Below, in pieces: positions 2,549-26,131 of a DNA stretch of 32,715 bases. This stretch comes from Planctomycetota bacterium. Lineage in GTDB: Bacteria; Planctomycetota; JAJSAM01. How positions within the stretch are numbered: position 1 is the stretch's first letter; every line of letters starts with the position of its first letter. The notes under the pieces were generated by a model. The model was given only the letters and a program-made list of their open reading frames with translations. It did not search any database and had not been told where the DNA came from. The stretch spans positions 1 through 32,715 of the forward strand of contig JBDLIY010000001.1 in assembly GCA_039714635.1 (NCBI GenBank), in the 5' to 3' direction. Made by a program: the position numbers and the translations under genes.

Positions 2549-2794
2549 ATGAAGCGGTACAACCTGTACGAACTGAAGAAGAACCTCTCCCGGTACATCG
2601 AGTGCGTCCGGGAGGGGGAGACGATCATCGTGTGCAAGCGCAACGTGCCGGTCGCGGAGATCCGCCCGATCAAGCCCCGGCGGACGACAAAGCGTCCGAT
2701 CGGCGTCGCGAAGGGAGAGTTCACGATTCCGGAGGAGTTCTACGAACCCCTCGATGAGGAAACTCTGGCCGCGTTCGAGGCTCCCATCGAGTGA
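2549..2794 (+). CDS. Phd/YefM-family type II antitoxin (VapB-type partner)
   Basis: 81 aa: MKRYNLYELKKNLSRYIECVREGETIIVCKRNVPVAEIRPI, a typical Phd/YefM N-terminal fold signature. Its stop overlaps the GTG start of the downstream PIN gene (GTGA, 2791..2794). Confidence 0.8.
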   Translation: MKRYNLYELKKNLSRYIECVREGETIIVCKRNVPVAEIRPIKPRRTTKRPIGVAKGEFTIPEEFYEPLDEETLAAFEAPIE

Positions 2795-3177
2795 AGCTCC
2801 TCCTAGACACGTGCACGTTTCTCTGGCTGGTGCTCGATGAGAGTCGACTCTCCGCCGCGGCCCGGGAGTCGTTCCAGGATCCCGCGAACGACACCTACCT
2901 CAGTGCCGTCTCGGTGTGGGAGATCTCGCTCAAGCACGCAGCCGGGAAGCTGCCCCTGCCCGAATCCGTGGACCGTTTCGTTCCACGGGTGCGCGGGTTG
3001 CTGGACGTCGAACCGCTCCCCCTGGACGAGGAGTCGGCACTCCACCTCGCCAGACTCCCGGCCATCCACGGCGATCCCTTCGACCGGATGCTCATCAGCC
3101 AGGCGCTCATGGGGGGCATGGTTCTGGTGACTCCGGACCAAGTGATCACGCAGTATCCCGTCCGGACTCTCTGGTAG
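2791..3177 (+). CDS. vapC: VapC-family PIN-domain toxin
   Basis: 128 aa with LLLDTCTF (first acidic residue), SVWEISLK and HGDPFDRMLISQAL, the characteristic PIN signatures. 4-nt overlap with the upstream antitoxin. Confidence 0.85.
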   Translation: MKLLLDTCTFLWLVLDESRLSAAARESFQDPANDTYLSAVSVWEISLKHAAGKLPLPESVDRFVPRVRGLLDVEPLPLDEESALHLARLPAIHGDPFDRMLISQALMGGMVLVTPDQVITQYPVRTLW

Positions 3178-3196
3178 GCGGTCGAGCCACCGGCCC

Positions 3197-3228
3197 GTCT
3201 CAACAACGAGACGTCTCGGTTTTGAGAC
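3197..3228 (+). terminator. tandem double hairpin GTCTC-aacaac-GAGAC / GTCTC-ggtttt-GAGAC downstream of vapC
   Basis: Read directly from the sequence. Two adjacent 5-bp stems form an imperfect 32-nt palindrome; the second loop contains TTTT. Could be a weak terminator or an operator. Confidence 0.3.
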
Positions 3229-3367
3229 AGGATCGCATGCCGCTTGCCCCGTTTTATGGGTCGGGTATCATTCAGTCGCTTGACTGGCTCGTCCAGAGCC
3301 CGCGCCGCCGCGCACACACCGGGTTGCAGACGTCCGTCCTAAAGATCCGTGCGGGAGACTCTCCGAC

Positions 3368-4291
3368 ATGAGCTTGCTCTATGTCTTCTGTTACGCGTGC
3401 GTCGCCGTCTTCTTCGCCTGCGTCATCAAGCGCTTCCTCAAGCTGGCCCGACTGCCGGTCCACGTCCGCTGGGAACTCTACCCGGTGGCCCACGAACCCG
3501 GGGAGAAGGCGAAGTACGGAGGCTCCATCCTCGAAGAACCCGAGTGGTGGACGAAGCCGCGCCACAGCTCGAAGCTCAACGAGCTGAAGGTGATGGTGCC
3601 GGAGATCCTCCTCCTGCAGGGCGTGAAGGAGCACAACAAGTCCCACTGGGCGAAGACCTTCCCGTTCCACTTCGGGCTGTACCTGCTGATCGGCGCCACG
3701 ATGCTGCTCGTCCTCGGCGGCCTGTTCGGCGCGACCGGGCCGGGCGGCTTCTTCGGGACGCTGATCCCGCTCGCAGCCTACGCGGGTCTCGCGCTCGGCC
3801 TCTTCGGCGCGGTCGCGCTGCTCCACCGCCGGATGACCGACGAGGAGTACCGCGATTTCTCGCTGCCGGTGGACTTCTTCAACCTGGTCTTCTTCATCGC
3901 CGCGTTCGGCATCGCGCTGCTCGGGCAGATCACGGCCGACCCCGACTTCGCGAAGATGCGCGGGTTCTTCCACGGGCTGTTCACGTTCGACGGGGGAGCG
4001 CTCGGCGGGTTGCAGGTCGTCCAGGTGATCCTGCTCACGCTGCTGATGACGTACATCCCCTTCACCCACATGTCGCACTTCTTCACGAAGTACTTCATGT
4101 ATCACGACGTCCGGTGGAGCGATGAGCCGATGACGGCGGGGTCGAAGCTGGAGCGGCGGGTCGGCCGCGCGCTCGCGCTGAAGCCGACCTGGGCCGCGTC
4201 GCACATCGACGCCGCCGACGGGACGAAGACCTGGGTCGACGTCGCGACCTCGACCGGCATCCCGGAGGAGTCCGAGGGAGGTGAGTCATGA
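3368..4291 (+). CDS. NarI-family (DsrM/HmeC-like) membrane cytochrome b, second copy
   Basis: 307 aa with about 5 TM helices and conserved His in helices (FPFHFGLYLL; IPFTHMSHFFTKYF, compare DsrM FPFSKLMHLPGVF at 19944..20948). ATGA overlap with the following HdrD-like gene. Confidence 0.75.
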   Translation: MSLLYVFCYACVAVFFACVIKRFLKLARLPVHVRWELYPVAHEPGEKAKYGGSILEEPEWWTKPRHSSKLNELKVMVPEILLLQGVKEHNKSHWAKTFPFHFGLYLLIGATMLLVLGGLFGATGPGGFFGTLIPLAAYAGLALGLFGAVALLHRRMTDEEYRDFSLPVDFFNLVFFIAAFGIALLGQITADPDFAKMRGFFHGLFTFDGGALGGLQVVQVILLTLLMTYIPFTHMSHFFTKYFMYHDVRWSDEPMTAGSKLERRVGRALALKPTWAASHIDAADGTKTWVDVATSTGIPEESEGGES

Positions 4292-5889
4292 GCTACGACC
4301 GCGTGAAGCCCGAGGACATCTCGAAGGAGAGGGAGGAGTTCCTCAGCAAGACGCGCAAGGAGGAGTTGAAGGAACTGCCGGTGCTCGACGAGACGCCCGA
4401 GTTCGCGAATCTCAACGGCAAGGCGCTCGAGTGCGCCGGGAGCGACCTCGACGGCACCCTCGTTCTCAACATGCCGGAGCCGAAGGACGAGGCCGAGAAG
4501 AAGGCGCTGGTCGAGAAGTTCCTCGGCGGTGTCCAGAAGCTCTTCGAGGGTCACAACAACTGGACGTTCCTGCAGCCGCTGCTCCTCACGATGGACCACT
4601 GCGCCAAGTGCCACACGTGCTCCGACGCGTGCCACACCTACGAGATGAGCGGGCGGAACCCGATCTACCGGCCGGCCTACCGCACCGAGATCCTCCGGCG
4701 GATCTACAAGAAGTTCGTCAAGACGAACGGGAAGCTTCTCAGCAGCTTCCGCTCCGGGAAGTTGACGCTCAACTGGCGGACCGTGGCGCGGCTGGCCGAG
4801 CTGGCCTACCGCTGCAACCTCTGCCGCCGCTGCGCCCAGACCTGCCCGGTCGGCTGTGACAACGGCCTCGCGGCGCGCGAGATCCGGAAGGTCTTCTCCC
4901 AGGAGATGGACATCTACCCGAAGGAACTGCACGAGAACGGCTCCGTCCTGCAGATGAAGGTCGGCTCCTCGACCGGCATGAACGCGCTGGTCGTGAAGGA
5001 CAACGTCGAGTTCATCGACGAGGACATGACCGAGATCACGGGGATGAAGGTCGAGACCCCGTGGGACGTGGAGGGCGCGGACATCCTGCTCCTTCACAAC
5101 GCCGGCGAGATCATGGCCTGGCCGGAGAACGTCGGCGCGTTCGCGACGATCTTCGAGGCGGCGGGGCTCTCGTGGACTCTGTCCAGCGAGATCGCGGGCT
5201 ACGACTCGATCAACTACGGTCTCTTCTACGACGACGCCCAGTTCGCCCGGGTGGCGATCCACCACGCGTCCGCCGCGAAGAAGCTCGGCGTGAAGAAGAT
5301 CGTCATGGGCGAGTGCGGCCACGCGCACAAGGCGCTGACCGTCATCGCCGACCGTGTCCTGACGGGCGACCTGAACATCCCGCGCGAGAGCTCGATGGCG
5401 GTGCTCGAGGATCTGGTCTGCAACGACAAGCTGAAGCTCGACCCGTCGCGGAACGACTTCCCCGTGACGCTGCACGACCCGTGCAACATGGTGCGGCTGA
5501 TGGGGATCGTCACGCCCCAGCGTCGGGTCCTCGAGAAGATCGCGCCGCGGTTCCGCGAGATGAACCCGCACGGCGTGGAGAACTACTGCTGCGGGGGCGG
5601 GAGCGGCTTCGCGATCATGAGCGGCCACAACTTCGCGGACTGGCGCGCCCAGGTCTCGGGCCGGAAGAAGATCGAGCAGACGATTCTGGCCTTCGAGGAC
5701 GAGATGGACCCCTCGATCCGGAAGTACGTCGCCGCGCCCTGCAGCAACTGCAAGGGCCAGTACCGGGACATGATCTCGTACTACGACCTCTGGGAGAAGC
5801 ACAGCATCCTGTACGGCGGGCTCGTCGAGCTGATCGTCAACTGCATGGAAGACGTCAACCCCGGTTTCATCGACTGGGAGTGGAGCTGA
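4288..5889 (+). CDS. HdrD/DsrK-like iron-sulfur protein with CCG domain, second copy
   Basis: 533 aa. Two ferredoxin-type clusters (CAKCHTCSDACH; CNLCRRCAQTCP). CCG signature HDPC-x34-CCGGGSG-x49-CSNC. Collinear with DsrK at 20953..22575. Confidence 0.85.
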   Translation: MSYDRVKPEDISKEREEFLSKTRKEELKELPVLDETPEFANLNGKALECAGSDLDGTLVLNMPEPKDEAEKKALVEKFLGGVQKLFEGHNNWTFLQPLLLTMDHCAKCHTCSDACHTYEMSGRNPIYRPAYRTEILRRIYKKFVKTNGKLLSSFRSGKLTLNWRTVARLAELAYRCNLCRRCAQTCPVGCDNGLAAREIRKVFSQEMDIYPKELHENGSVLQMKVGSSTGMNALVVKDNVEFIDEDMTEITGMKVETPWDVEGADILLLHNAGEIMAWPENVGAFATIFEAAGLSWTLSSEIAGYDSINYGLFYDDAQFARVAIHHASAAKKLGVKKIVMGECGHAHKALTVIADRVLTGDLNIPRESSMAVLEDLVCNDKLKLDPSRNDFPVTLHDPCNMVRLMGIVTPQRRVLEKIAPRFREMNPHGVENYCCGGGSGFAIMSGHNFADWRAQVSGRKKIEQTILAFEDEMDPSIRKYVAAPCSNCKGQYRDMISYYDLWEKHSILYGGLVELIVNCMEDVNPGFIDWEWS

Positions 5890-5893
5890 TCCG

Positions 5894-6295
5894 ATGGCGC
5901 ACATCCTGATCGTGGACGACGAAGCGGACGTCATCACCTATCTCTCCGCGATGCTCACGGACGCGGGCCACCGGGTGACGACGGCGAACAACGGCGCCGA
6001 GGCGATGGACGCGGTGAAGGCCGACCGGCCGGACCTCGTCTCCCTCGACATGTCCATGCCGGAGAAGTCGGGCGTGCGGTTCTACCGGGAGATGAAGGAG
6101 GACGCGGACCTGGCGGGCGTCCCGATCGTGATCGTCACCGGCGTGACGAACCCGTGGTCGGGCCGCGGCGGCGAGGGGACGTTCGAGGGCTTCATCTCGT
6201 CCCGGAAGCAGGTCCCGCCGCCGGAGGGCTTCTTCGAGAAGCCGGTAAAGAAGGACGCCTACCTGGCGAAGGTGGCGGAGCTGACCGGAGCCTGA
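5894..6295 (+). CDS. stand-alone CheY-like response regulator receiver
   Basis: 133 aa: ILIVDDE acidic pocket, SLDMSMP phospho-acceptor Asp, IVIVTGV Thr, FFEKPV Lys. No output domain. Starts 5 nt after the HdrD-like gene. Confidence 0.85.
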   Translation: MAHILIVDDEADVITYLSAMLTDAGHRVTTANNGAEAMDAVKADRPDLVSLDMSMPEKSGVRFYREMKEDADLAGVPIVIVTGVTNPWSGRGGEGTFEGFISSRKQVPPPEGFFEKPVKKDAYLAKVAELTGA

Positions 6296-6296
6296 C

Positions 6297-6333
6297 AATC
6301 TGCAAATCGGGGTCTGACCCCGATTTGCAGATT
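6297..6333. terminator. perfect 17-bp stem / 3-nt loop hairpin between convergent genes (bidirectional terminator candidate)
   Basis: AATCTGCAAATCGGGGT-ctg-ACCCCGATTTGCAGATT read directly. It fills the whole gap between the receiver stop (6295) and the NtrC-type stop (6333..6335). No clear U-tract. Confidence 0.6.
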
Positions 6334-7700
6334 CAGTCCACCAGGACGTTCAGTTCCTTGATCTTTTCCCACAGGCGCTTGCGCGAGATGCCCAGGAGGT
6401 CGGCGGCGCGCGTGCGGTTGCCGCCCGTGCGCCCCAGCGCCTTGCCGATGATCATCCGCTCCGTCTCGCGGACATGGCAGTGGATGTCCAACTCGTCCGG
6501 GCAACTGCCCTTCAACTCCTCGCGGTACTGGCGGAGGTCCGGAGGGAGGTCGGCGATCCCGATCTTCTTCGTCCGGCAGAACATCACCGCGCGCTCGATC
6601 GTGTTCTCCAACTGTCGCACGTTGCCCGGCCAGCCGTACGCCTTCAGCAGACGGACACAGGTCGGGGCGATCTCCGCCACCTGCTTCCCCTGGTTGAACG
6701 AGGCCTTCCGCATGAAGTGCTCGACCAGCAGCGGGATGTCCTCCGGCCGGTCGCGCAGCGCCGGCGCCTCCAGCGTCACGACGTTCAGGCGGTAATACAG
6801 GTCCTCCCGGAACCTCCCCTCGTCGACCATGGTCTTCAGGTCGAAACGGGTGGCGCACACGACGCGCGTGTGCGGTTCGATCGTCGTCGTGCCGCCGACG
6901 CGCTCGAAGGCGTGCTCCTGCAGGACGCGGAGCAGCTTCACCTGCACGACGGGGGAGATGTCGCCGATCTCGTCGAGGAAGATCGTTCCCTCGTGCGCGA
7001 GCTCGAACCGGCCGATCTTCCGCTGGTGGGCGCCCGTGAAAGCGCCCTTCTCATGGCCGAAAAGCTCCGCTTCGAGGAGCGTCTCGGGCAGGGAGGGGCA
7101 ACTCACCTTCACGAAGGGGCCGGAGCCGTGCTCACTCTGGTCGTGGATCGCCCGGGCCACCAGCTCCTTGCCGGTCCCGCTCTCCCCGGTGATCAGGATT
7201 GTCGCGTGGTTGGTGGCGACGATCTCGATCTGGCCCAGGAGCTCCCGGATCTGGCGGCTCTCCCCGACGATCGGGTGGTCGACGCGCTCCTGACGGAGGA
7301 CGAAGTTCTCCTCACGGAGCCGGATGAGGTCCTCATACCGCTCGAGCCGCTTCACGAGGTCCTCGGTGCGGAACGGCTTCGTGAGGAACTCGTTGGAGCC
7401 GAGCTTCATCGCCTCGACGGCCGTCTCCACGGTGCCGTGGGCCGTCATGATGATGACCGGGATCCCGGTGTCCCCGGCGCGGATCTCCTCCAGGACGGCC
7501 ATCCCGTCGACGCCGGGCATGACGAGGTCGAGGAGGATCAGGTCGAACCGCTCTTCCCGCCAGGCGTTGAGCCCGGCGCGACCGTCCTTCTCCGCGCGGA
7601 CGTGATAGCCCGCGTCCGTGAGGAGATCCGTGAGGGACTCCCGCAGGAGCGCCTCGTCTTCCATCATCAGGATGCGGATGGGCCGGGACCTCGGAGGCAT
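6333..7700 (-). CDS. sigma54-dependent NtrC-family response regulator (REC + AAA+ + Fis-type HTH)
   Basis: ORF 6333..7820(-). I prefer the start at ATG 7700 (MPPRSRPIRILMMEDE), 1 nt after the kinase stop. Motifs: LLDLVMPGVDG receiver Asp, GESGTGKE Walker A, GHEKGAFTGA (GAFTGA sigma54-contact motif), C-terminal AADLLGISRKRLWEKIKEL HTH. Confidence 0.92.
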   Translation of the reverse strand: MPPRSRPIRILMMEDEALLRESLTDLLTDAGYHVRAEKDGRAGLNAWREERFDLILLDLVMPGVDGMAVLEEIRAGDTGIPVIIMTAHGTVETAVEAMKLGSNEFLTKPFRTEDLVKRLERYEDLIRLREENFVLRQERVDHPIVGESRQIRELLGQIEIVATNHATILITGESGTGKELVARAIHDQSEHGSGPFVKVSCPSLPETLLEAELFGHEKGAFTGAHQRKIGRFELAHEGTIFLDEIGDISPVVQVKLLRVLQEHAFERVGGTTTIEPHTRVVCATRFDLKTMVDEGRFREDLYYRLNVVTLEAPALRDRPEDIPLLVEHFMRKASFNQGKQVAEIAPTCVRLLKAYGWPGNVRQLENTIERAVMFCRTKKIGIADLPPDLRQYREELKGSCPDELDIHCHVRETERMIIGKALGRTGGNRTRAADLLGISRKRLWEKIKELNVLVD

Positions 7701-7701
7701 C

Positions 7702-8916
7702 TCAGTCTTCTCCGTCGGGGCCCGGTGCGGCGGGCAGGCGGATCGTGAGCCGCGCGCCGCCCTCGGGCCGGTTCGAAGCCTCGATCGTACCCCCGTGGGC
7801 CTGCACGATGCCAAGAGCAACGGACAGCCCGAGTCCGGTTCCCTCGCCGACCTCCTTCGTCGTATAGAAAGGCTCGAAGATGCTCTCGAGCTCCTCGACG
7901 GGCAGGCCGGGGCCCGTGTCCTCGAGGCAGACGACCGCGTTGTCCTCCTCGTCGGTGCTCGTGGTGGTCGTGAGGATGCCGCCGTCCGCCATCGCCTGGA
8001 AGGCGTTCATGGAGAGGTTCAGGAACAGCTGGTTCAGGAGGTCCGTGTCGCCGTCCACCAGCGGGATCTCTCCGAACCGGGTGACGATGTGCATCCGGGA
8101 CGAGCGGTACTGCAGCCGCGCGAGGTGGGAGACGTCCTGGACCATGGCGTTCAGGTCCACGAGGTCGCGCTGGCCGGAGGGCTGACGGGCGAAGCGCAGG
8201 AGTTGGTGAACGATCTCGCCGATGCGCTCCAGGCCGGACTTCATCAGCACCATGTAGTCCTTGTACCGCCGGGATTCCGGGTTGAGGTGGCCGATCACCT
8301 CCAGGGCGGTCAGGATCCCGCCGACGGGGTTGTTGATCTCGTGGGCCACGCCGGCGGAGAGGCGGCCGAGGGCGGCGAACTTCTCGATGTTCGCCTGGCG
8401 CTGGTTCGCCTCCCTCGACCGTTCCCGGGTCCGGCGGATGGCCTGCACCATCTCGTTGAAGTGCCGGCCGAGCTCCCCGATTTCGTCCTCCCGCTCCACC
8501 GGCACTTCGACGGAGAGGTCTCCGGCCTGGACCTCCTCCATCTTCCGGGCGAGACGCGAGACGGGGTCGAGCCACTTGCGCGCGAGCCAGCCCACGAAGA
8601 GGGCGGCGAGGCCGGCGCAGAGGACCGAGAGGCTCACGGCGACGATCGCGACCGTGTCCAGCCCGACCGTGCCCGGGCGGCAGAGAACGATGACGACGGT
8701 GGCGATGAGCAGCCCCGGCACGAGAGCCAGGAAGCCCGCGGCGAGCTGGTATTTCGTGGCGCTGCGTTTCAGATCGGACCTCCGGGCTCCGGCGGAATAT
8801 CGCGTGAACCGGGAAGATTTCCCCGGCCGCTTCCCATGCTCCGACCGGGAGGATCGTGGTCCCCGGCCGGGCCGGATTCGCCCACCGGCGCGCCCTGCCG
8901 TCCAGAGGGGCAACAT
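7702..8916 (-). CDS. sensor histidine kinase (2 TM, HAMP, HisKA, HATPase) lacking an extracytoplasmic sensor domain
   Basis: ORF 7702..8952(-). Two TM helices are separated only by CRPGTVGLDT. HAMP region (EDEIGELGRHFNEMV), H-box SAGVAHEINNPV, N-box NLSMNAFQAM, G-boxes EDTGPGL and GTGLGLS. Start uncertain: ATG 8916 or TTG 8952. The N-terminus is Arg-rich. Confidence 0.85.
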   Translation of the reverse strand: MLPLWTAGRAGGRIRPGRGPRSSRSEHGKRPGKSSRFTRYSAGARRSDLKRSATKYQLAAGFLALVPGLLIATVVIVLCRPGTVGLDTVAIVAVSLSVLCAGLAALFVGWLARKWLDPVSRLARKMEEVQAGDLSVEVPVEREDEIGELGRHFNEMVQAIRRTRERSREANQRQANIEKFAALGRLSAGVAHEINNPVGGILTALEVIGHLNPESRRYKDYMVLMKSGLERIGEIVHQLLRFARQPSGQRDLVDLNAMVQDVSHLARLQYRSSRMHIVTRFGEIPLVDGDTDLLNQLFLNLSMNAFQAMADGGILTTTTSTDEEDNAVVCLEDTGPGLPVEELESIFEPFYTTKEVGEGTGLGLSVALGIVQAHGGTIEASNRPEGGARLTIRLPAAPGPDGED

Positions 8917-9029
8917 CCGTGCCGGGGACGATCCGACGGTCCGCGGAATCAAGTGCGGAATAGTCCCGGTCCAGCTGTTGATCCGTCCCCAGCCGAGGGC
9001 GGAAACGGGGAATCAGGGCCGAGGGACGC

Positions 9030-9194: not shown

Positions 9195-9210
9195 TGGCTT
9201 GGTGTTTGCG
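9195..9210 (+). promoter_or_regulatory. candidate sigma54 (-24/-12) promoter upstream of dsrA
   Basis: TGGCTT-ggtgt-TTGCG matches the TGGCAC-N5-TTGCW consensus with correct GG/GC spacing. It lies about 205 nt upstream of the dsrA ATG and next to a divergent NtrC-type activator gene. Confidence 0.35.
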
Positions 9211-10616: not shown

Positions 10617-11691
10617 TGCCGCCAAGAGGGTCACGGACATCGGCCCCCCGCATTACGACAAGTTCCTGCCTCCGGTCATCAAGGCCAACTACGGCAAGTG
10701 GAAGTACCACGAGATCCTGCGGCCGGGCGTGATGGTTCACGTCGGCGAGTCGGGCGACGAGATCTTCACCGTTCGCGGTGGCTCGCCCCGCCTCCTCTCG
10801 ATCGATCGCATCCGGGAATACGCGGACCTGGCCGACAAGTACTGCGACGGCCACCTGCGCTTCACGAGCCGCCACAACGTCGAGTTCCTCCTGTCGGACA
10901 AGGAGAAGATCGACCCGCTCATCGCGGACATGGACGCGGCGAAGATCCCGGTCGGCGGCATGGGCGCCTCGATCACCAGCATCGTTCACACGCAGGGCTG
11001 GGTGCACTGTCACTCGGCGGCGACGGACGCGTCCGGCATCGTCAAGGCGGTCATGGACGGCGTTCACCCGTACTTCACCGGTGAGAAGAAGGTCCCCGGG
11101 AAGCTGCGCATCGCCCTCGCCTGCTGCCTGAACATGTGCGGTGCCGTCCACTGCTCGGACATCGCGATCCTCGGCATCCACCGCAAGGCGCCGGTGACCG
11201 ACCACACCACGCTGAACAAGGTGTGCGAGATTCCGAACGTCGTGGCGTCCTGCCCGACGGCGGCCATCCGCCCCCAGAACATCGAGGGCAACCCGTCCGT
11301 CGAGGTGATCGAGGAGCAGTGCATGTTCTGTGCGAACTGCTTCACGGTCTGCCCGTCGATGACCCTGAACGACCCCGTCAACGACGGCGTCTCGATCTGG
11401 GTCGGCGGCAAGGTCAGCAACGCCCGCTCCGAGCCGATGTTCTCGAAGCTGGCCATTCCCTACATCCCGAACAATCCGCCGCGGTGGCCGGAAGTGACCG
11501 ATGCCGTTCTGAAGCTCGTCGAGCTGTGGGCCGACAACGCCAAGCCCTACGAGCGGATGGGCGAGTGGATCGACCGGATCACCTGGCCGAAGTTCTTCCG
11601 GATGGCCGGGATCGATTTCCAGAAGGAGCACATCGACGACTTCAAGCACGCCGGGCTGACCTTCAAGCGGTCGACCCAGATCGTGCACTGA
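10609..11691 (+). CDS. dsrB: dissimilatory sulfite reductase beta subunit
   Basis: Start at ATG 10609 inside ORF 10456..11691, overlapping dsrA by 8 nt. [76 protein letters not shown]. Confidence 0.97.
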
Positions 11692-11724
11692 GTCGAACTC
11701 ACCGGAGAAGGACAGGAGGCGGAA

Positions 11725-11973
11725 ATGTCTGACATGGTCAGTATCGACGAGATCGCCGACAAGATGTTCGAGCAGGTCAAGGCGGCCGCGGGCCAGAAGA
11801 AGCTGAAGCCCGGCGACCTGACCAAGATGATGATCGAGCTCTTCGGCGACCGGGTGGACAAGAAGCTCTGCAAGAAGGCCATCCGCCAGTTGATCGAGAC
11901 CGAACGCTGTGTCTACACATACTTCGGCGGCTCGTACATCGAGCTGCCGCACAAGGAAGGCGCAGAGAACTAG
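11725..11973 (+). CDS. dsrD: DsrD-like small winged-helix protein
   Basis: 82 aa directly after dsrB with an AGGAGG RBS. Lys-rich helix (KKLKPGDLTKMM, KKLCKKAIRQLIE) followed by YTYFGGSYIEL, resembling the DsrD Y..GS motif. The position after dsrAB is canonical. Confidence 0.8.
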   Translation: MSDMVSIDEIADKMFEQVKAAAGQKKLKPGDLTKMMIELFGDRVDKKLCKKAIRQLIETERCVYTYFGGSYIELPHKEGAEN

Positions 11974-11989
11974 GTCTCTCGATCGCTCG

Positions 11990-13408
11990 ATGACCGCCGC
12001 ACCTCCGAGACTCGTGGTAGCGGGTGCCGGGGGGGACTCGGGTAAGACCCTGGTCTCCCTCGGCCTCGCGAGCGCATGGCGGCAGGCCGGATTCGCCGTC
12101 TCCGCGTTCAAGAAGGGGCCCGACTACATCGACGCCGCGTGGCTTTCCCGCGCGGCGGAACGCCCCGCCCGCAACCTCGACACCTGGCTCATGGGTGAGC
12201 CGGGGGTGCTCCATTCCTTCGCCGTTCACTCCGCAGATACCGACGTCGCCGTGGTGGAGGGAAACCGGGGACTGCTCGACGGGCTCGACGGTACGAGTAC
12301 CGCGGCCCTGGCGACCACCCTCGGCGCCCCCGTCCTCCTCGTGCTCGACGTCACCAAGGTCACCCGGACCGCGGCCGCCTTCGTGGCCGGCTGCCGGGCC
12401 CTCGCGCCCGAGGTCCACATCGCCGGGGTCGTCGCCAATCGCCGGGCCGGGTCTCGACATGAATCCGAGGTCCGCCGTGCGATCGAAGGAGAGACGGGCG
12501 TCCCCGTGCTGGGTGCGATCCCGAAGCTATCGGACTCTCACCTGCTTCCCGACCGTCACCTCGGCCTCGTGCCGCCGGAGGAACACGACCGCATGGTCGA
12601 CGTCGTCCGACGGCTCGGCGGGGTGATGGCGGAGCACGTGGATCTGGACGCCCTTCTCGAAACCGCCCGTTCGGCCGGACCGCTCGAGTCGGTCCCGGAG
12701 CCGGACGGCGTGGACGCAACGGGTGCAGGCCTCCGGGTCGCGGTCTTCCGCGATTCCGCCTTCACCTTCTACTACCCGGAAAACCTGGAGGCGCTCGAGG
12801 CCGCCGGCGCGGAAGTCGTTCCCGTGTCCGCGCTCGACGATCCTCTCCTTCCCGAGGTCGACCTCCTCTACATCGGAGGGGGCTTCCCGGAGACTCACGC
12901 CGCCGCTCTGGCCGGAAACCGGTCCCTGATCGATTCCGTCGAGGGCGCCGTCCGGGACGGCCTTCCCGTCTACGCCGAGTGCGGAGGGCTGATCTGGCTC
13001 TCCCGTTCGGTGACCTGGCGGGGCCGGACCGCGGAGATGGCCGGTGTCCTCGGCGTGGACATCGAGGTCATGGAGAGGCCCCAGGGGCATGGCTACGCCG
13101 AGATGGCCGTCGACGAGGCCAACCCGTTCTTCGCTCCCGGCACGATCCTCAGGGGTCACGAGTTCCACTACTCCCGCCTGACGGGCGCGCCCGTCGACAC
13201 GCGGACGGTGATGGAGGTCCGCCGGGGGAAGGGGAGCCGGGACGGCCGGGACGGCCTGGTCGCGAACAACGTCTTCGCGTCGTGGAATCACCTGCACGCG
13301 ACCGCGACTCCCGAATGGGCGCCGGCCCTCATGGCGGCGGCCCGGGCCCGTCGCGGACGAAGTGGGGAAAGTCAGGAACGCGCAACCTGTGGAGGACGAA
13401 GCCGATGA
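11990..13408 (+). CDS. dsrN: cobyrinic acid a,c-diamide synthase family protein; siroheme amidase DsrN
   Basis: Start at ATG 11990 inside ORF 11909..13408. GGDSGKT ATP-binding loop and YAECGGLIWL glutamine-amidotransferase Cys. The dsr context gives the DsrN call. Confidence 0.85.
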   Translation: MTAAPPRLVVAGAGGDSGKTLVSLGLASAWRQAGFAVSAFKKGPDYIDAAWLSRAAERPARNLDTWLMGEPGVLHSFAVHSADTDVAVVEGNRGLLDGLDGTSTAALATTLGAPVLLVLDVTKVTRTAAAFVAGCRALAPEVHIAGVVANRRAGSRHESEVRRAIEGETGVPVLGAIPKLSDSHLLPDRHLGLVPPEEHDRMVDVVRRLGGVMAEHVDLDALLETARSAGPLESVPEPDGVDATGAGLRVAVFRDSAFTFYYPENLEALEAAGAEVVPVSALDDPLLPEVDLLYIGGGFPETHAAALAGNRSLIDSVEGAVRDGLPVYAECGGLIWLSRSVTWRGRTAEMAGVLGVDIEVMERPQGHGYAEMAVDEANPFFAPGTILRGHEFHYSRLTGAPVDTRTVMEVRRGKGSRDGRDGLVANNVFASWNHLHATATPEWAPALMAAARARRGRSGESQERATCGGRSR

Positions 13409-13982: not shown

Positions 13983-15695
13983 ATGGCGATCAAGCGCTCG
14001 GGAAAGAAGAAGAAGAAGAAGCTCGGAAGTCTGAGGAGCTCGTCCAGCGGGTCCAGCACCGTGCAGTCGGATCGCCGGCCGAAGTGGGTGGCGAAGACGC
14101 CGCCCTGCCAGCTGAACTGCCCGCAGGGCACCGACATCCGGGGCATCCTCCGGACGATCGCCGACGGGGAGAAGCACGAGAAGCCGCGCGACGAGACGTT
14201 CCTGACCGCCTTCACGATGCTCACGAAGAACAACCCGTTCCCCTCCGTCTGCGGCCGCGTCTGCCCGCACCCGTGCGAGACCGGATGCAACCGCAACGAG
14301 TTGGACGAGGCGGCGAGCATCAACGCGATGGAGCGCTTCATCGGCGACTGGGGTCTCGAGAAGGAGCTGGCCCTGCCCGCGGGCGAGATGGAGCACGCCG
14401 ACAAGCCGATCGCCGTGATCGGCGCCGGCCCCGCCGGGCTGTCCGCGGCCTTCCACCTGCGGAAGCACGGCTACCCGGTCACCGTGTTCGAGGCCTTCCC
14501 GAAGGCCGGCGGGATGCTGCGCTACGGCATCCCGGCGTACCGGCTGCCCCGGGACGTCCTCGACGCGGAGATCCAGCGGATCGTCGACATGGGCGTCACA
14601 CTGAAGTGCGACGTCTCGATCGGCCGCGACATCCCCCTGGAGGAGATCCGGCAGCAGTACGCCGCGGTCTTCGTCGGGATCGGCGCCCACCAGGGCCGCC
14701 TCCTGCGCTGCCCGGGCGAGGACGCCGAGAACGTCTGGACCGGCACCTCGTTCCTGAACGAGGCGAACCAGGGCAAGACGATCGACGTCGGGAAGAACGT
14801 CGTGGTGATCGGCGGTGGCGACACGGCCATCGACGCGGCCCGGATGGCGCGTCGCATGGGTTCCGACGCCATGATCCTGTACCGCCGGACCCGCGAAGAG
14901 ATGCCGGCCATCCAGGAAGAGATCGACGGGGCGGAGAAGGAGGGCGTGGACATCCGCCTCCTCGCCGCGCCGCTCGAGATCAACGTGGAGAACGGCCGGG
15001 CCGTCTCGATGCGCTGCCAGGTGATGGAACTCGGCGAGCCGGATGACTCCGGCCGTCGCCGTCCCGTCCCGATCGAGGGCGAGGAGTTCACCATCCCGGT
15101 GGACACCATCGTCGCCGCGATCAGCCAGGAGCCGGACTTCACCGGCCTCGAGGACCTGCGCGAGACGCCGAAGGACTGGATCAAGGCCGACGAGTACGGC
15201 GCCACGCAGGTCGACGGCGTCTACTCCGGCGGTGACAACCTCAACCTCGCGCTCGTCACGACCGCCATCTTCCAGGGGCGCGTCGCGGCGGAGACGATCG
15301 ACTACGGCATCCGCGGTATCGAGCGTCCGGCCGAGGAGACGAAGCCCGAGATCAAGGCCGACAAGATGGTCCTCACCTTCTACGAGAAGAAGCTGAGGGA
15401 GCACGGGGAGGAGATGGCCGCCGAGGCGGCCCTCGCCGATCCGGACGCGGAAATCCAGTCCGGACTGACGGAGGAGCAGGCGGTGGAGGAAGCCGCCCGC
15501 TGCCTCTCCTGCGGGGAGTGCTTCGACTGCGGCACGTGCTGGAGCTTCTGCCAGGACAACGCCATCGTCAAGCCGCTGATCGTGGGCGACCCCTACAAGT
15601 TCAAGCTGGAGTTCTGCAAGGGCTGCGACAAGTGCGCGGAGCAGTGTCCGTGCGGCTACATCGAAATGTACGACCCCATGACCAGCTCCGCGTAG
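13983..15695 (+). CDS. dsrL: DsrL-type NAD(P)H oxidoreductase (GltD-like, two dinucleotide folds, C-terminal 2x[4Fe-4S] ferredoxin domain)
   Basis: 570 aa. N-terminal Cys clusters CQLNCPQG and CGRVCPHPCETGC. VIGAGPAGLSAA and VVVIGGGDTAIDAA. C-terminal CLSCGECFDCGTCWSFC and CKGCDKCAEQCPCG. Located between dsrN and dsrC. Confidence 0.85.
   Translation: MAIKRSGKKKKKKLGSLRSSSSGSSTVQSDRRPKWVAKTPPCQLNCPQGTDIRGILRTIADGEKHEKPRDETFLTAFTMLTKNNPFPSVCGRVCPHPCETGCNRNELDEAASINAMERFIGDWGLEKELALPAGEMEHADKPIAVIGAGPAGLSAAFHLRKHGYPVTVFEAFPKAGGMLRYGIPAYRLPRDVLDAEIQRIVDMGVTLKCDVSIGRDIPLEEIRQQYAAVFVGIGAHQGRLLRCPGEDAENVWTGTSFLNEANQGKTIDVGKNVVVIGGGDTAIDAARMARRMGSDAMILYRRTREEMPAIQEEIDGAEKEGVDIRLLAAPLEINVENGRAVSMRCQVMELGEPDDSGRRRPVPIEGEEFTIPVDTIVAAISQEPDFTGLEDLRETPKDWIKADEYGATQVDGVYSGGDNLNLALVTTAIFQGRVAAETIDYGIRGIERPAEETKPEIKADKMVLTFYEKKLREHGEEMAAEAALADPDAEIQSGLTEEQAVEEAARCLSCGECFDCGTCWSFCQDNAIVKPLIVGDPYKFKLEFCKGCDKCAEQCPCGYIEMYDPMTSSA
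14004..14021 (+). repeat. (AAG)6 trinucleotide repeat encoding Lys6 in the DsrL N-terminus
   Basis: gga aag aag aag aag aag aag ctc read directly; in frame with ATG 13983. Confidence 0.95.
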
Positions 15696-15776: not shown

Positions 15777-16100
15777 ATGAGTGATTTCGTCAAGGTCATC
15801 GATGGTGTCGAGTGCACGCTGGACGAGGATGGCTTCCTGCAGGAGCCGGATCTCTGGTCGGAGCGGGTCGCCGAGGAGTTCGCGAAGGACGAGGGCGTCG
15901 AGGCTCTCACCGACGACCACTGGAAGGTGATCAACTACCTTCGGGAGTACTACCTGAAGAACAAGATCGCGCCGATGGTCCGCCGCCTCTGCAAGGAGAC
16001 CGGCTTCAACGTCAAGCAGATCTACGAGCTGTTCCCCAGCGGCCCCGCGAAGGGCGCCTGCAAGCTCGCCGGCCTGCCGAAGCCGACCGGCTGCGTCTAG
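15777..16100 (+). CDS. dsrC: DsrC, sulfur-carrier/trisulfide substrate protein of DsrAB
   Basis: 107 aa. C-terminal arm CKLAGLPKPTGCV has both conserved cysteines (penultimate Cys and a Cys 11 residues upstream). HWKVINYLREYY core. AGGAGG RBS. Confidence 0.95.
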   Translation: MSDFVKVIDGVECTLDEDGFLQEPDLWSERVAEEFAKDEGVEALTDDHWKVINYLREYYLKNKIAPMVRRLCKETGFNVKQIYELFPSGPAKGACKLAGLPKPTGCV

Positions 16101-19310: not shown

Positions 19311-19428
19311 TCTTCACCGAGACGGGGTATGAACTTCAGGCAGCCCCCTGCAGCCACGACACGTGGAGGCGGGACCGGCCACGGCCGGGACGGGATCCAC
19401 GAGGCCCCGTTCGACCACGGGCTGCAGC

Positions 19429-19947
19429 ATGTTGAGATCCCGGTTCACCGAACTTCTGGCGTCGAACCGGAAGGAGATCCACGACCGGTGGATCGCCCGC
19501 ATCCTCGCCGCCTATCCGCAGGAGTCCGCGAAGTTCATCGGGCGCGAGAAGGACCGCTTCAGGAACCCCATCGGCTCCACCCTCCAGGAGGGGACGACCG
19601 CCGTCCTCGACGCGCTCGAGGCGGGCGGGGAGGCCGAGGCACTTCGCGACGCGGTGGAGGGGATGATCCGGCTGCGCGCCGTGCAGGTGGACAAGGCGTC
19701 GGAAGCGGTTTCCTTCATCCCCGCCCTCGCCGACGTGGTGAAGCGCGTCCTCGGGGACAGCGTGACCGCGGAAGAAGTCTCGAAGTTCGAGACCCGGATG
19801 GAAGTCCTGCTGCTGGACGCCTTCGACACCTACATGCAGTGCCGGGAGAAGGTGTTCGAGATCCGACTGACGGAACTCAGGAACCGGACCTTCAAGCTTC
19901 TCGAGAGAGAGGGGGAGGTCTCATTGAAGCGAGGTGCTGATCGATGA
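19429..19947 (+). CDS. dsrT: DsrT (RsbRD N-terminal domain protein)
   Basis: Start at ATG 19429 inside ORF 19363..19947. MLRSRFTELLASNRKEIHDRWIARILAAYP..DRFRNPIG is the RsbRD_N-type signature. Immediately precedes dsrM with an ATGA overlap, as in sulfate reducers. Confidence 0.75.
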   Translation: MLRSRFTELLASNRKEIHDRWIARILAAYPQESAKFIGREKDRFRNPIGSTLQEGTTAVLDALEAGGEAEALRDAVEGMIRLRAVQVDKASEAVSFIPALADVVKRVLGDSVTAEEVSKFETRMEVLLLDAFDTYMQCREKVFEIRLTELRNRTFKLLEREGEVSLKRGADR

Positions 19948-20952: not shown

Positions 20953-22575
20953 ATGGCCGACGAATACAAGCAGGAGGAGCTGGCGGCCGTCGACTACGGG
21001 TCGGTGCCGAAGACGGGCTGGATGGACACGCCGGCCGACTTCCGGAAGGGCAACTGGCTCTACGCCGGCGGGAAGAAGCACTTCGACTACCTCGACATGC
21101 CGAACTCGCACGAGTGGGCGCCGCTGGACGAGGACTGGAACCTGCCGGCGAACTGGAAGGAGATCATCCTCGAGGGGATGAAGGAGCGCCTCGCGAAGTA
21201 CCGCTCCTTCCGGCTCTTCATGGACATCTGCGTGCGCTGCGGCGCCTGCGCCGACAAGTGCCACTTCTACCTGGGCTCCGCCGACCCGAAGAACATGCCG
21301 GTGCTGCGCGCCGAGCTCCTCCGGAGCGTCTACAAGCGCTACTTCACGAAGGCGGGGAAGACCCTCGGCAAGCTGGTCGGCGCCCGTGACCTCACGATCG
21401 ACGTGCTGAAGGAGTGGTTCTACTACTTCTACCAGTGCACGGAGTGCCGCCGTTGCTCGGTCTTCTGCCCCTACGGGATCGACACCGCCGAGGTGACGAT
21501 GATCGGGCGCGAACTGCTGGCGCTCGTCGGGATCTCGGTCGGCTGGATCATGGAGCCGGCGGCGAACTGCTACCAGACCGGCAACCACCTCGGCGTGCGG
21601 CCGAACACCTTCAAGGACAACCTGGAGTTCGCGGCCGAGGACCTCGCGGACATCACGGGCATCGAGGTCGAGGTGCCGATCGACAAGGCCGGCGCCGACG
21701 TCCTCGTGGTCGTGCCCTCCGCCGACTACTTCGCCAACCCGCACTACTTCACGTTCCTGGGCTACCTCGCGCTGTTCCACGAGATCGGGCTCAACTACAC
21801 GTTCAGTCCGTTCGCCACGGAGGGTGGCAACTTCGGCCTCTTCCTGTCGAAGGACATGATGAAGAGACTGAACGTGAAGATCTACCAGGAGGCGAAACGC
21901 CTCGGGGTGAAGTGGATCCTCGGGTGCGAGTGCGGCCACATGTGGCGCGTGCTGCACCAGTACATGGACACGATGAACGGCCCGGCGGACTTCCTCGAGG
22001 TCCCGAAGTCGCCGGTCACCGGCACCGTGTTCAAGAACGCGGCGGCGACGAGCACGGTCCACATCTGCGAGTTCACCGCGGACCTGCTCAAGCACGACAA
22101 GCTGAACCTCGACATCAGCCGGAACGACGAGTTCAAGGTCACGTTCCACGACTCCTGCAACCCGGCCCGCGCGGTCGGGCTGCTCGAGGAGCCGCGCTAC
22201 ATCCTGGACCGCGTCCTCAACCACTTCGTCGAGATGCCGGAGAACACGATCCGCGAGCAGACCTTCTGCTGCGGCGGCGGCTCGGGCCTCGGCGCGGATG
22301 AAAACATGGAGGCGCGCCTGCGCGGTGGCCTGCCGCGGGCCAACGCGGTGAAGTACGTCCACGACAAGTACGGCGTGAACACGCTTTCCTGCATCTGCGC
22401 GATCGACAAGGCGGTCCTGCCGCCGCTGGTGGAGTACTGGGTGCCCGGGGTGGAGGTCGCCGGCATCCACGAGTTCGTCGGCAACGCGCTCATCATGAAG
22501 GGCGAGAAGAAGCGGGAGCTGAACCTCCGCAGCGAGCCGCTCCCGAACGGCGGGGAGGAGGTGGCCGATGAATGA
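20953..22575 (+). CDS. dsrK: DsrK, HdrD-like catalytic iron-sulfur subunit
   Basis: 540 aa. CVRCGACADKCH, CTECRRCSVFCP, and CCG domain HDSC-x36-CCGGGSG. Confidence 0.95.
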   Translation: MADEYKQEELAAVDYGSVPKTGWMDTPADFRKGNWLYAGGKKHFDYLDMPNSHEWAPLDEDWNLPANWKEIILEGMKERLAKYRSFRLFMDICVRCGACADKCHFYLGSADPKNMPVLRAELLRSVYKRYFTKAGKTLGKLVGARDLTIDVLKEWFYYFYQCTECRRCSVFCPYGIDTAEVTMIGRELLALVGISVGWIMEPAANCYQTGNHLGVRPNTFKDNLEFAAEDLADITGIEVEVPIDKAGADVLVVVPSADYFANPHYFTFLGYLALFHEIGLNYTFSPFATEGGNFGLFLSKDMMKRLNVKIYQEAKRLGVKWILGCECGHMWRVLHQYMDTMNGPADFLEVPKSPVTGTVFKNAAATSTVHICEFTADLLKHDKLNLDISRNDEFKVTFHDSCNPARAVGLLEEPRYILDRVLNHFVEMPENTIREQTFCCGGGSGLGADENMEARLRGGLPRANAVKYVHDKYGVNTLSCICAIDKAVLPPLVEYWVPGVEVAGIHEFVGNALIMKGEKKRELNLRSEPLPNGGEEVADE

Positions 22576-25027: not shown

Positions 25028-26131
25028 ATGAAACGACTGTTCCGATCGCCGTGGCTCGAAGTCAACGTGATGCTCCTCATCCTCGTCATGTCCTACGTCG
25101 GGCTCGCCATCATGGGGCTCGGCGAGGAGCAGGTGGGCGAGGGGATGGGCATCGGCGAGATCACGGTCTGGTTGCTGGGCTTCTTCCTTCTGTCCTTCGC
25201 GATCGCCCTGGTGGCGGTCATCGGCGGGATCGGCGGGGGAGTCCTCTTCACACCCACGATGATGGCGTTCACCGACGTGAACAGCCTCATCATCCGCGCC
25301 ACCGGGCTCATCGTGGCCATGTTCTCCGGCCTCGTCAGTACGGGGCCGTTCATGAGGCGCGGGCTCGCGAACCTGAGGATCTGCATCTTCTGCGCGGCGG
25401 CCTACGGGGTCGGCGCGTTCAGCGGCGCGATGCTCGCGATCGTCGTCGCCGAGCACATGGGGCCGGCCGGGGAGGGCTTCGTCCGGCTTTCCCTCGGCGT
25501 GATCCTCGCCTCCCTCGGGGTCTACTTCCTCGTGGGCGGAAAGAAGATCGAGTGGCCCGAGGTGAAGAAGGTCGATGGCTTCACGAAGCGGCTGAAGCTG
25601 AGCCAGCCCTACTACGAAGCCTCCCTCGACAAGGTCGTCGACTACCCGCTGACCCGCGCGGCCTGGGTGATCTTCGCCATCATGGGCGTCGGACTGCTCT
25701 CCGGGTTCTTCGGTCTGGGAGCGGGTTGGGCGATCGTCCCGGCCCAGAACCTCATCATGGCGGTGCCCCTGAAGGTCGCGGCGGCCAACAGCGGCGTCCT
25801 CCTCGGGATGGGGGACTGCATCGCGGTCTGGCCCTACCTGCACCAGGGGGCGATCATCGCGCTCTTCGCCGCGCCGTGGCTCGTGGGCCAGGTGCTCGGC
25901 GGCCTCTTCGGCGCGCTGATCCTCATCCGGATCCAGGCGGGCTTCGTTCGCTTCCTTCTCATCGGGTTCATGTTCTTCGCCTGCTTCGGGTTGTTCACGA
26001 AGGCGCTCGAGATGTTCGGCGTGATCGGCTCGACCCCGGTCTGGCTGCGCGGGCTCGTCTTCGTCGGGATCTTCGGGGCGGTGATCCGATCGATCCTCAA
26101 GCAGGCGAAGGAGAAGGAGGTGCGGGGATGA
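25028..26131 (+). CDS. TauE/SafE (TSUP, DUF81) family anion permease, putative sulfite/sulfonate transporter
   Basis: 367 aa. Duplicated TSUP signatures GIGGGVLFTP and GLGAGWAIVP, with about 8 TM helices and a central hydrophilic loop. 54 nt after dsrP on the same strand. Confidence 0.75.
   Translation: MKRLFRSPWLEVNVMLLILVMSYVGLAIMGLGEEQVGEGMGIGEITVWLLGFFLLSFAIALVAVIGGIGGGVLFTPTMMAFTDVNSLIIRATGLIVAMFSGLVSTGPFMRRGLANLRICIFCAAAYGVGAFSGAMLAIVVAEHMGPAGEGFVRLSLGVILASLGVYFLVGGKKIEWPEVKKVDGFTKRLKLSQPYYEASLDKVVDYPLTRAAWVIFAIMGVGLLSGFFGLGAGWAIVPAQNLIMAVPLKVAAANSGVLLGMGDCIAVWPYLHQGAIIALFAAPWLVGQVLGGLFGALILIRIQAGFVRFLLIGFMFFACFGLFTKALEMFGVIGSTPVWLRGLVFVGIFGAVIRSILKQAKEKEVRG

Follow-up and report, generated by a model that had tools for sequence, protein, structure and literature searches.

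We analyzed a 32,715-nt stretch of DNA from a Planctomycetota bacterium (JAJSAM01; assembly GCA_039714635.1, contig JBDLIY010000001.1, positions 1-32,715 of the forward strand), hereafter the window, and describe in it a three-gene operon in which a second DsrMK-like pair is followed by a response-regulator receiver. The operon encodes M2 (3368-4291, + strand), a 307-aa DsrM/NarI-like membrane protein with approximately five predicted helices; K2 (4288-5889, + strand), a 533-aa DsrK/HdrD-like cytoplasmic iron-sulfur (Fe-S) protein with Fer4_8 and CCG domains; and REC (5894-6295, + strand), a 133-aa stand-alone CheY-like receiver. The stop codon of M2 overlaps the start codon of K2 in the sequence ATGA (4288-4291), the K2 stop and the REC ATG are separated by 4 nt, and a Shine-Dalgarno-like GGAG precedes every start. 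Judged by its conserved residues and gene neighborhoods, REC is a dedicated, conserved partner of DsrMK-like modules, which suggests that two-component signaling may act directly on a respiratory enzyme. We propose, as a reading that falls just short of an even chance, that M2K2 would be a quinol-linked DsrMK-type reductase acting on DsrC or a DsrC-like carrier, and that REC, once phosphorylated by a kinase, would regulate the complex by contact. Gene structures, conserved residues, conserved neighborhoods, and gene fusions were established directly from the sequences compared below.

Comparison with known families places K2 closest to DsrK. Among the NCBIfam models, K2 scored best against DsrK (NF045796; 326.8 bits), followed by TmcB (200.5 bits) and HmcF (185.8 bits), and each of these scores lies below the cut-off of its model (400, 735, and 750 bits, respectively). 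Likewise, 14 of 14 K2 family members scored best to DsrK and under its cut-off, the strongest match having an E value of 2e-101, whereas the canonical DsrK of the window (20953-22575) reaches 700.6 bits. The two window proteins share 32% sequence identity (E 1e-52). K2 carries two CX2CX2CX3C [4Fe-4S] motifs (C105/C108/C111/C115 and C176/C179/C182/C186) that are invariant in 16 aligned sequences, and the Pfam Fer4_8 domain is matched at E 6e-10. The T/GECGH cysteine and the CCG motif CXnCCGXnCX2C, as defined in PMC10861901, are also present, the former as G341-E-C343-G-H345 and the latter in complete form as C399, C434-C435-G436, and C485-x2-C488 (Pfam CCG, 26 bits; cut-off, 20.6 bits). Both ferredoxin motifs, the GECGH cysteine, and the CCG motif make up the catalytic equipment of DsrK/HdrD proteins (PMC10861901). 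In K2, the Fe-S, GECGH, and CCG cysteines are invariant across 14 orthologs, the catalytic cysteines are under strong purifying selection, and overall conservation across phyla is comparable to that of canonical DsrK. It was previously reported that the CCG motif of Archaeoglobus fulgidus DsrK homologs outside the main DsrMKJOP complex, including those encoded in dsrMK-only arrangements, ends in Cys, whereas that of the main-complex DsrK ends in Asp (PMC10861901). The same split is found in the window, where the CCG motif of K2 ends in Cys and that of canonical DsrK in Asp. In addition, K2 carries its own conserved N-terminal extension of 95 residues. A search of solved structures with K2 gave only one weak match (9ojn, E 1e-4). 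Because K2 is highly conserved, retains its catalytic residues, and is often encoded without a receiver, we regard M2K2 as an enzyme first.

M2 is related to DsrM, and the homology is secure at the profile level. M2 matches Pfam Nitrate_red_gam (PF02665) at 25.3 bits (cut-off, 22.9 bits), its identity to the DsrM of the window is 25%, and alignment of the M2 family with the canonical DsrM family by hhalign gave a probability of 98.9% (E 1.3e-17, 240 columns). DsrM is a di-heme cytochrome b with His/His ligation (PMC10861901). When 87 M2, 30 M3 (the membrane subunit of a second related module described below), and 17 canonical DsrM sequences were compared, all 17 DsrM proteins carried four membrane histidines (H136, H146, H260, and H278 in the window DsrM), whereas all M2 and M3 proteins retained just one histidine in helix 2 (the first) and one in helix 5 (the last), which are H101 and H237 in M2. 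Of the remaining two heme positions, one is histidine in 0% and the other in 5% of the M2 sequences; M3 has histidine at neither. M2 thus has the NarI/DsrM fold but not the four-histidine di-heme pattern of DsrM/NarI-type proteins. Five other histidines (H32, H42, H234, H246, and H279) are invariant and specific to the M2 family. By analogy with NarI, we take the retained pair H101/H237 to be the ligands of the cytoplasm-proximal heme, and M2 probably holds only this heme b. M2K2 would then lack the two-heme transmembrane wire of DsrM, in which case its reaction with quinone may be electroneutral and take place close to the cytoplasmic side. A sequence search of solved structures found no useful relative for M2. 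For the two enzyme subunits, coordinates, Pfam matches, and alignment agree with an earlier note on this stretch, which had described a NarI-type cytochrome b coupled through ATGA to an HdrD/DsrK-type protein with two Fe-S motifs and a CCG domain.

Relatives of M2K2 are widespread and often adjoin dsr genes. K2 relatives were found among 5825 of 8000 scored candidates at E 1e-3 or better; the best 120 are 68-88% identical over nearly the full length, and the named ones are Planctomycetota and Acidobacteriota metagenome-assembled genomes (MAGs). The closest relative (locus L167) is 88% identical. In species-representative (GTDB) genomes, K2 relatives occur at at least 543 places; the best 80 are 64-76% identical and labeled Planctomycetota, Gemmatimonadota, Acidobacteriota, Methylomirabilota, Poribacteria, Tectomicrobia, Binatia, Ignavibacteria, Myxococcales, Thermodesulfobacteriota, and "Deltaproteobacteria." In 85 of 86 related loci, K2 is directly preceded by a co-directional M2 gene. 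Linkage to other genes was counted in 73 species loci, each with at least 700 bp of sequence downstream of K2, and neighborhoods were examined within 10-kb flanks. M2K2 abuts dsr genes in 21 of these loci, lying directly 5' of dsrAB or directly 3' of dsrP, and in 19 it sits in or beside a dsr cluster without any receiver. Acidobacterial K2 copies that abut dsrAB (upstream) or dsrP (downstream) are 64-71% identical to the K2 of the window.

In the window, M2K2 is followed by dsrA (starting at 9414), dsrB, dsrN, a dsrL-type gene, dsrC, siroheme genes, the canonical dsrMKJOP (from 19944, 14 kb past the K2 end), and a TauE/SafE gene; no J, O, or P gene lies beside M2K2. The window therefore holds a second DsrMK-family pair near dsrAB in a genome that also has dsrMKJOP, which is what the names dsrM2/dsrK2 denote. 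Such pairs were named in Acidobacteria and called "not uncommon in SRM" (sulfate-reducing microorganisms; Hausmann et al. 2018, PMC6018796), and they are also present in a Desulfosporosinus MAG (PMC6372793). By homology and gene position, M2K2 is a dsrM2/dsrK2 paralog pair. Like the acidobacterial pairs, it shares its locus with dsrL, dsrC, dsrN, and dsrMKJOP. However, a kinase/regulator operon intervenes before dsrAB in the window, and the window pair has a co-operonic receiver, whereas the two papers named the genes and reported neither a function nor a receiver. A similar comparison can be made with the DsrMK of DsrMKJOP, a menadiol:DsrC-trisulfide oxidoreductase (PMC10861901). The membrane and Fe-S subunits are homologous, and the two [4Fe-4S] motifs, GECGH, and CCG are shared. 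M2K2 differs in its low identity (32% for K and 25% for M), its lack of J/O/P partners, its sub-cut-off scores, its two fewer heme histidines, the Cys rather than Asp at the end of the CCG motif, and the N-terminal extension of K2.

Several other genes recur around M2K2. In a Planctomycetota MAG (GCA_040758315.1; L168, 3647-12032), M2-K2-REC stands beside aprBA, qmo/hdrA-like genes, and a Na/sulfate symporter gene, so the triplet is tied to adenosine 5'-phosphosulfate (APS)-reduction genes besides dsr. Tandem DsrC/TusE-like proteins of approximately 218 aa recur near M2K2 and M3K3 (L004, 13386-14042; L015; L082; L143; L167, 14628-15287) and may be substrates or partners. A MerR-family regulator with a Cys-rich C-terminal half is encoded directly 5' of M2 in Planctomycetota and Gemmatimonadota loci (L006, 8538-9056; L008; L009; L010; L013; L014; L017; L066; L143; L165), at the position where the window has a PIN toxin gene.

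REC belongs to a distinct receiver subfamily. It matches Pfam Response_reg (PF00072) at 69.2 bits (E 4e-19), and the phospho-transfer residues D8, D9, D52, T82, and K116 are all present and 91-100% conserved in an alignment of 113 distinct family members. Within this alignment, D52, T82, K116, F100, R104, and P110 are conserved at 100% and D9 at 97%. The family is further marked by an alpha4-beta5 signature, F97-x2-F100-I-S-x-R104-x-QVPPPEG[YF]-x2-K116-P, with F97, F100, R104, Q106, V107, P108-P110, G112, K116, and P117 at 94-100%. Three residues ahead of the lysine, the aromatic switch position is occupied by F113 in the window REC and by Tyr in most relatives, and an extra loop after beta4 (positions 87-95, PWSGRGGEG) is found in the window REC and its nearest relatives. 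All family receivers score best to the DVU0259 family model (NF045717), the window REC at 90.2 bits and its relatives at 69-98 bits, below the cut-off of 160 bits. DVU0259 itself lies a few genes from tmcABCD (DVU0263-0266); it was not mentioned in the literature searched. Like CheY (which acts on the flagellar switch), DivK, and CpdR, REC is a stand-alone receiver with the D-D-D-T-K set intact, an aromatic switch residue, and no output domain. Unlike them, it has a family-specific alpha4-beta5 signature, its genes sit with a redox enzyme, and its target is only proposed.

The link between this receiver and K2 extends over distant lineages. Of the 73 species loci, 25 have a receiver gene that starts no more than 300 bp past K2, a count that rises to 28 when up to 1.6 kb is allowed, and the REC-K2 loci carry at least seven phylum or class labels: Planctomycetota (including Phycisphaerales), Acidobacteriota (including Thermoanaerobaculia), Myxococcales, Poribacteria, Methylomirabilis, Ignavibacteria, and Deltaproteobacteria. 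The association was also seen starting from the receiver. When metagenome contigs were scanned with the peptide QVPPPEG[YF] alone, a module gene adjoined the receiver in 66 of the best 80 loci; in 45 of these it encodes M or K of the enzyme, and in the rest the associated kinase. In 13 of the other 14 loci, the upstream sequence was shorter than 750 bp. That a common domain co-occurs with the modules by chance was considered and rejected, because the signature is family specific and a scan with the signature alone lands on the modules. In L167, the receiver (11619-11975) lacks approximately 23 residues between the D52 region and beta4 and keeps the post-beta4 insertion, which reflects either decay of the gene or a fault in the assembly.

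A receiver of the same subfamily is physically joined to a second module, M3-K3::REC, which is found next to M2K2 in many metagenome loci as well as in 17 of the 73 species loci (L006, 3532-8056; also L008, L012, L014, L028, L094, L142, L143, and others) and is absent from the 32.7-kb window together with its PAS kinase. M3 (222 aa) scores best to HmcE/TmcC and shows the two-histidine pattern of M2, and the best models for K3 are HmcF (325 bits) and TmcB (312 bits). The C terminus of K3 is fused through a Pro/Ala-rich linker to a receiver of the REC subfamily, in one continuous frame in 31 loci. K3::REC is followed by a soluble two-PAS kinase and then by a free receiver of the REC family. Each PAS domain of this kinase holds a CYxVYKxRxxxCxxCP cysteine motif, suggesting a metal or Fe-S redox sensor.

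In the window, REC is convergent with a minus-strand operon of two signaling genes. The first of them to be met past REC encodes a sigma54-dependent NtrC/AtoC-type regulator (6333-7700, - strand) with REC, AAA+, and HTH_8 domains, and the second a histidine kinase (7702-8952, - strand) with HAMP, HisKA, and HATPase_c domains only. The two are translationally coupled, the likely start of the regulator being the ATG at 7700-7698, 1 nt past the kinase stop. The kinase has two predicted membrane helices separated by a joint of approximately eight residues and neither an extracytoplasmic nor a PAS sensor domain; its true start probably lies downstream of 8952. The five-gene block of M2-K2-REC and the convergent regulator-kinase pair is kept in L167, with identities of 88% (K2), 90% (regulator), 77% (kinase), and 59% (REC); in L167, a tandem DsrC-like gene stands in the place of dsrAB after the kinase. 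Among the other lineages examined, this kinase/regulator pair was not found beside M2K2, and the kinases that neighbor REC elsewhere are soluble PAS kinases with their own sensor domains. The HAMP kinase was also considered as a family-wide partner and rejected, as the convergent kinases of L142 and L143 are approximately 530 aa long with a large N-terminal domain and are not orthologs. Across these neighborhoods, no DNA-binding output is conserved with the module or the REC family.

On these comparisons we base the following model, from which we infer the substrate, heme number, receiver-enzyme contact, and direction of signaling. K2 would act as an HdrD/DsrK-type thiol/(tri)sulfide reductase that is anchored to the membrane by the DsrM-like M2. 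The most plausible substrate of M2K2 would be DsrC or a DsrC-like protein, with menaquinol as the redox partner. A sensor kinase, which elsewhere would be the adjacent soluble PAS kinase and in the window could be the adjacent HAMP kinase, would phosphorylate REC. Phosphorylated REC would bind M2K2 and change how active the complex is or which partners it has; the two-component system would have an enzyme, not a promoter, as its output. We favor the direction from kinase to REC to enzyme because receivers take phosphate from kinases, because the kinases adjacent to REC have their own PAS sensors, because no DNA-binding output travels with the REC family, because the sister module carries its receiver as a fusion to the enzyme subunit, and because M2K2 exists in dsr operons without a receiver. 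It is possible, if slightly less likely than the model for M2K2 itself, that a widespread and so far undescribed class of two-component pathways exists that has a membrane redox complex as its output and in which a kinase-phosphorylated dedicated receiver, free after K2 and fused to K3, gates the flow of electrons between the menaquinone pool and a DsrC-type carrier.

A number of observations weigh against the proposal that phosphorylated REC controls a DsrMK-type reductase. K2 stays under the DsrK cut-off, and M2 scores only 25.5 bits against the NCBIfam DsrM equivalog (cut-off, 300 bits). M2 is two ligands short of DsrM, so its coupling to quinol may differ from that of DsrM. DsrC as the substrate of M2K2 is supported by gene neighborhood alone. 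Approximately half of the M2K2 loci have neither REC nor K3::REC within 10 kb, so that receiver control is not universal, and REC linkage and dsr adjacency coincide in only one GTDB locus (L058), with the window and L001 as further cases. The only kinase of the window is coupled to its own sigma54 regulator and is at most a candidate partner of REC. The receiver in the fusion is C terminal, as are phosphate-sink or adaptation domains like those of CheV and CheA-REC, so that the fusion is compatible with more than one direction of signaling. Finally, the evidence on all M2K2 and REC members is comparative in nature.

The earlier note had taken the opposite direction, reading the complex as sensing rather than respiratory. 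According to that reading, M2K2 is a redox sensor of the quinone pool or DsrC that reports into a phosphorelay setting dsr expression. Its state might be passed to REC, for example, through control of kinase or phosphatase access. The observations on which the note was built were borne out: the stand-alone receiver has all of its phospho-transfer residues (with a gap of 4 nt after K2), the unit ends in a perfect hairpin with a 16-bp stem, the module is separate from dsrMKJOP, and the adjacent kinase lacks a sensor domain. Neighborhood mining, a check for which the note had called, further shows that the narI-like/hdrD-like/REC triplet is conserved in relatives. The linkage and fusion of the receiver are real and recurrent, and this part of the redox-sensing reading stands. 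Other points are also consistent with a sensor. Without the distal heme ligands, a two-heme electron path through M2 or M3 is unlikely, which suits a reporter that does not conserve energy; the sensor-less kinase could rely on a membrane partner; and the five-gene block is retained in the closest relative. However, a sensor-only role fits poorly with the strong purifying selection on the catalytic cysteines, all of which are kept, with the DsrK-like conservation of K2, and with the 19 of 73 loci in which M2K2 belongs to dsr operons without a receiver. The adjacent kinase, which the note had proposed as the partner, is coupled to its own regulator and accompanies the triplet only in the closest relative, and the usual REC-adjacent kinases have PAS sensors. 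Moreover, phosphate reaches receivers from kinases and not from redox enzymes, which means that an extra, unobserved step would be needed. Control of dsr expression through a phosphorelay is likewise at odds with a receiver family that has no conserved DNA-binding output.

The region 5' of dsrA bears on the same question. A weak sigma54-like -24/-12 element, TGGCTTGGTGTTTGC (9195-9209, + strand; two mismatches), lies approximately 205 nt 5' of the dsrA start and would suit a sigma54-dependent route from the phosphorelay to dsr. A second such match (8910-8924, - strand) is also found between the kinase gene and dsrA. However, a search for TGGCAC-N5-TTGC with up to two mismatches gave 17 matches in the window against 19.8 expected from shuffled sequence, none of them conserved in L167. 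As the matches are no better than chance, they cannot be used to tie the regulator to M2K2 or dsrA. On balance, we consider it unlikely that M2K2 serves as the redox sensor of such a relay.

The convergent gene pair suggests another arrangement, in which M2K2 is an ordinary respiratory paralog and REC is a phosphate sink or branch of the HAMP kinase/sigma54 regulator pair, tuning sigma54-dependent transcription nearby. The regulator and kinase genes are immediately convergent to REC and kept in L167 at 90% and 77% identity, and single-domain receivers are well known as phosphate sinks. This arrangement is nevertheless distinctly improbable, as the receiver subfamily tracks K2 or K3 and many M2K2-REC loci are without this kinase/regulator pair. 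In addition, REC is the least conserved member of the block in L167 (59%) and is approximately 23 residues short there, which would be odd for an essential pathway component.

The Hmc and Tmc complexes of Desulfovibrio offer a further precedent for a receiver gene beside a redox complex. They have NarI-like and HdrD-like subunits (HmcE/HmcF and TmcC/TmcB), to which M3 and K3 score best, and their operon ends with or adjoins a gene for a response regulator. They differ in that the window module has no cytochrome c subunit and K2 is nearer to DsrK (327 versus 186-200 bits), and Rrf1 of the Hmc system acts on transcription with the DNA-binding Rrf2, a partner not present in the window. A regulation of this kind, with REC and an unlinked DNA-binding partner controlling transcription of the M2K2 operon to which REC belongs as rrf1/rrf2 do for hmc, would draw on the finding that hmc expression is regulated by the products of rrf1 and rrf2, which lie downstream of hmcABCDEF (PMC10924467, citing Keon et al. 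1997), and on the MerR-type gene 5' of M2 in several Planctomycetota and Gemmatimonadota loci, but it is very unlikely, given that no DNA-binding gene is consistently paired with the receiver, that none is found in the window operon, and that fusion of the receiver to an enzyme subunit in 31 loci is unexpected for a transcription co-factor.

The flanks of the operon contain additional elements. A perfect 16-bp inverted repeat with a 5-nt loop (6297-6333) lies between the convergent REC and regulator genes and shares 1 nt with the regulator stop codon; it is the one strong hairpin associated with the operon, located 3' of the REC gene. ViennaRNA gave it a folding energy of -33.8 kcal/mol (z-score, -6.6; 0 of 200 shuffles folded equally well) and added one closing pair, resulting in a 3-nt loop. 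No U-tract follows the hairpin on either strand, a terminator scan did not call it, and it does not have the features of an intrinsic (rho-independent) terminator. L167 has a different strong hairpin at the same place, and the element is probably a transcript-end or stability element serving both operons. Upstream, the 190-nt gap between a PIN toxin gene and M2 contains a sigma70-like match, TTGCCC-16-TATCAT (3244-3271, + strand; 9 of 12 consensus positions), a candidate operon promoter for which the evidence is weak; two sites of this kind occur in 7 kb, against 0.4 expected. The PIN-domain toxin gene (2791-3177) lies immediately 5' of M2 in a region (2563-3177) that includes a small overlapping antitoxin-like open reading frame (ORF) upstream, and it is followed by a terminator-like hairpin (3196-3213). 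Further upstream, a 418-aa hydrophobic ORF (1270-2526, - strand) has no Pfam match and is of uncertain reality, as the window is 65-70% GC and has long ORFs in many frames.

The dsr genes downstream show further features. A DsrL-type NAD(P)-binding Fe-S flavoprotein gene (13983-15695) lies between dsrN (11909-13408) and dsrC (15777-16100), and this dsrL-dsrC arrangement is the one reported for Acidobacteria with reductive-type dsr loci. Directly 5' of dsrM, a 203-aa ORF (19329-19940) has no Pfam or NCBIfam match; the gene at this position in L001 carries an RsbRD_N domain, which is typical of DsrT. After dsrP come a gene for a TauE/SafE-family (sulfite exporter-like) membrane protein (25028-26131) and a cytidylate-kinase-like family 2 gene (26888-27688), and a gene of the latter family is also found near the module in L004.

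The names dsrM2/dsrK2 and the presence of a response-regulator gene beside an Hmc-type complex are already known. Our literature search found no description of a receiver linked or fused to DsrK/HdrD-like proteins. To our knowledge, as far as the literature was searched, the receiver subfamily, its cross-phylum conservation after dsrK2, its fusion to an HmcF/TmcB-like protein, and the two-histidine membrane subunits have not been described before. Extra DsrMK copies have been noted in many sulfate or sulfite reducers, none with an assigned role, and what is known of how dissimilatory sulfur metabolism is regulated concerns transcription almost exclusively. A receiver family joined through operons and fusions to both DsrMK-like and Hmc/Tmc-like modules provides a testable handle on these enzymes and raises the question of whether phosphorylation switches a respiratory enzyme or the enzyme feeds redox information into signaling. 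That M2 and M3 have apparently lost the distal heme is also relevant to energy conservation by these modules. The carriers, among them Acidobacteriota, Planctomycetota, Gemmatimonadota, and Methylomirabilota, include groups only recently recognized to have dsr genes, and their choice between sulfur respiration and alternative modes has consequences for the carbon and sulfur cycles. If phosphorylated REC does act on M2K2, dissimilatory sulfur metabolism would be controlled post-translationally in Planctomycetota, Acidobacteriota, and several further phyla.

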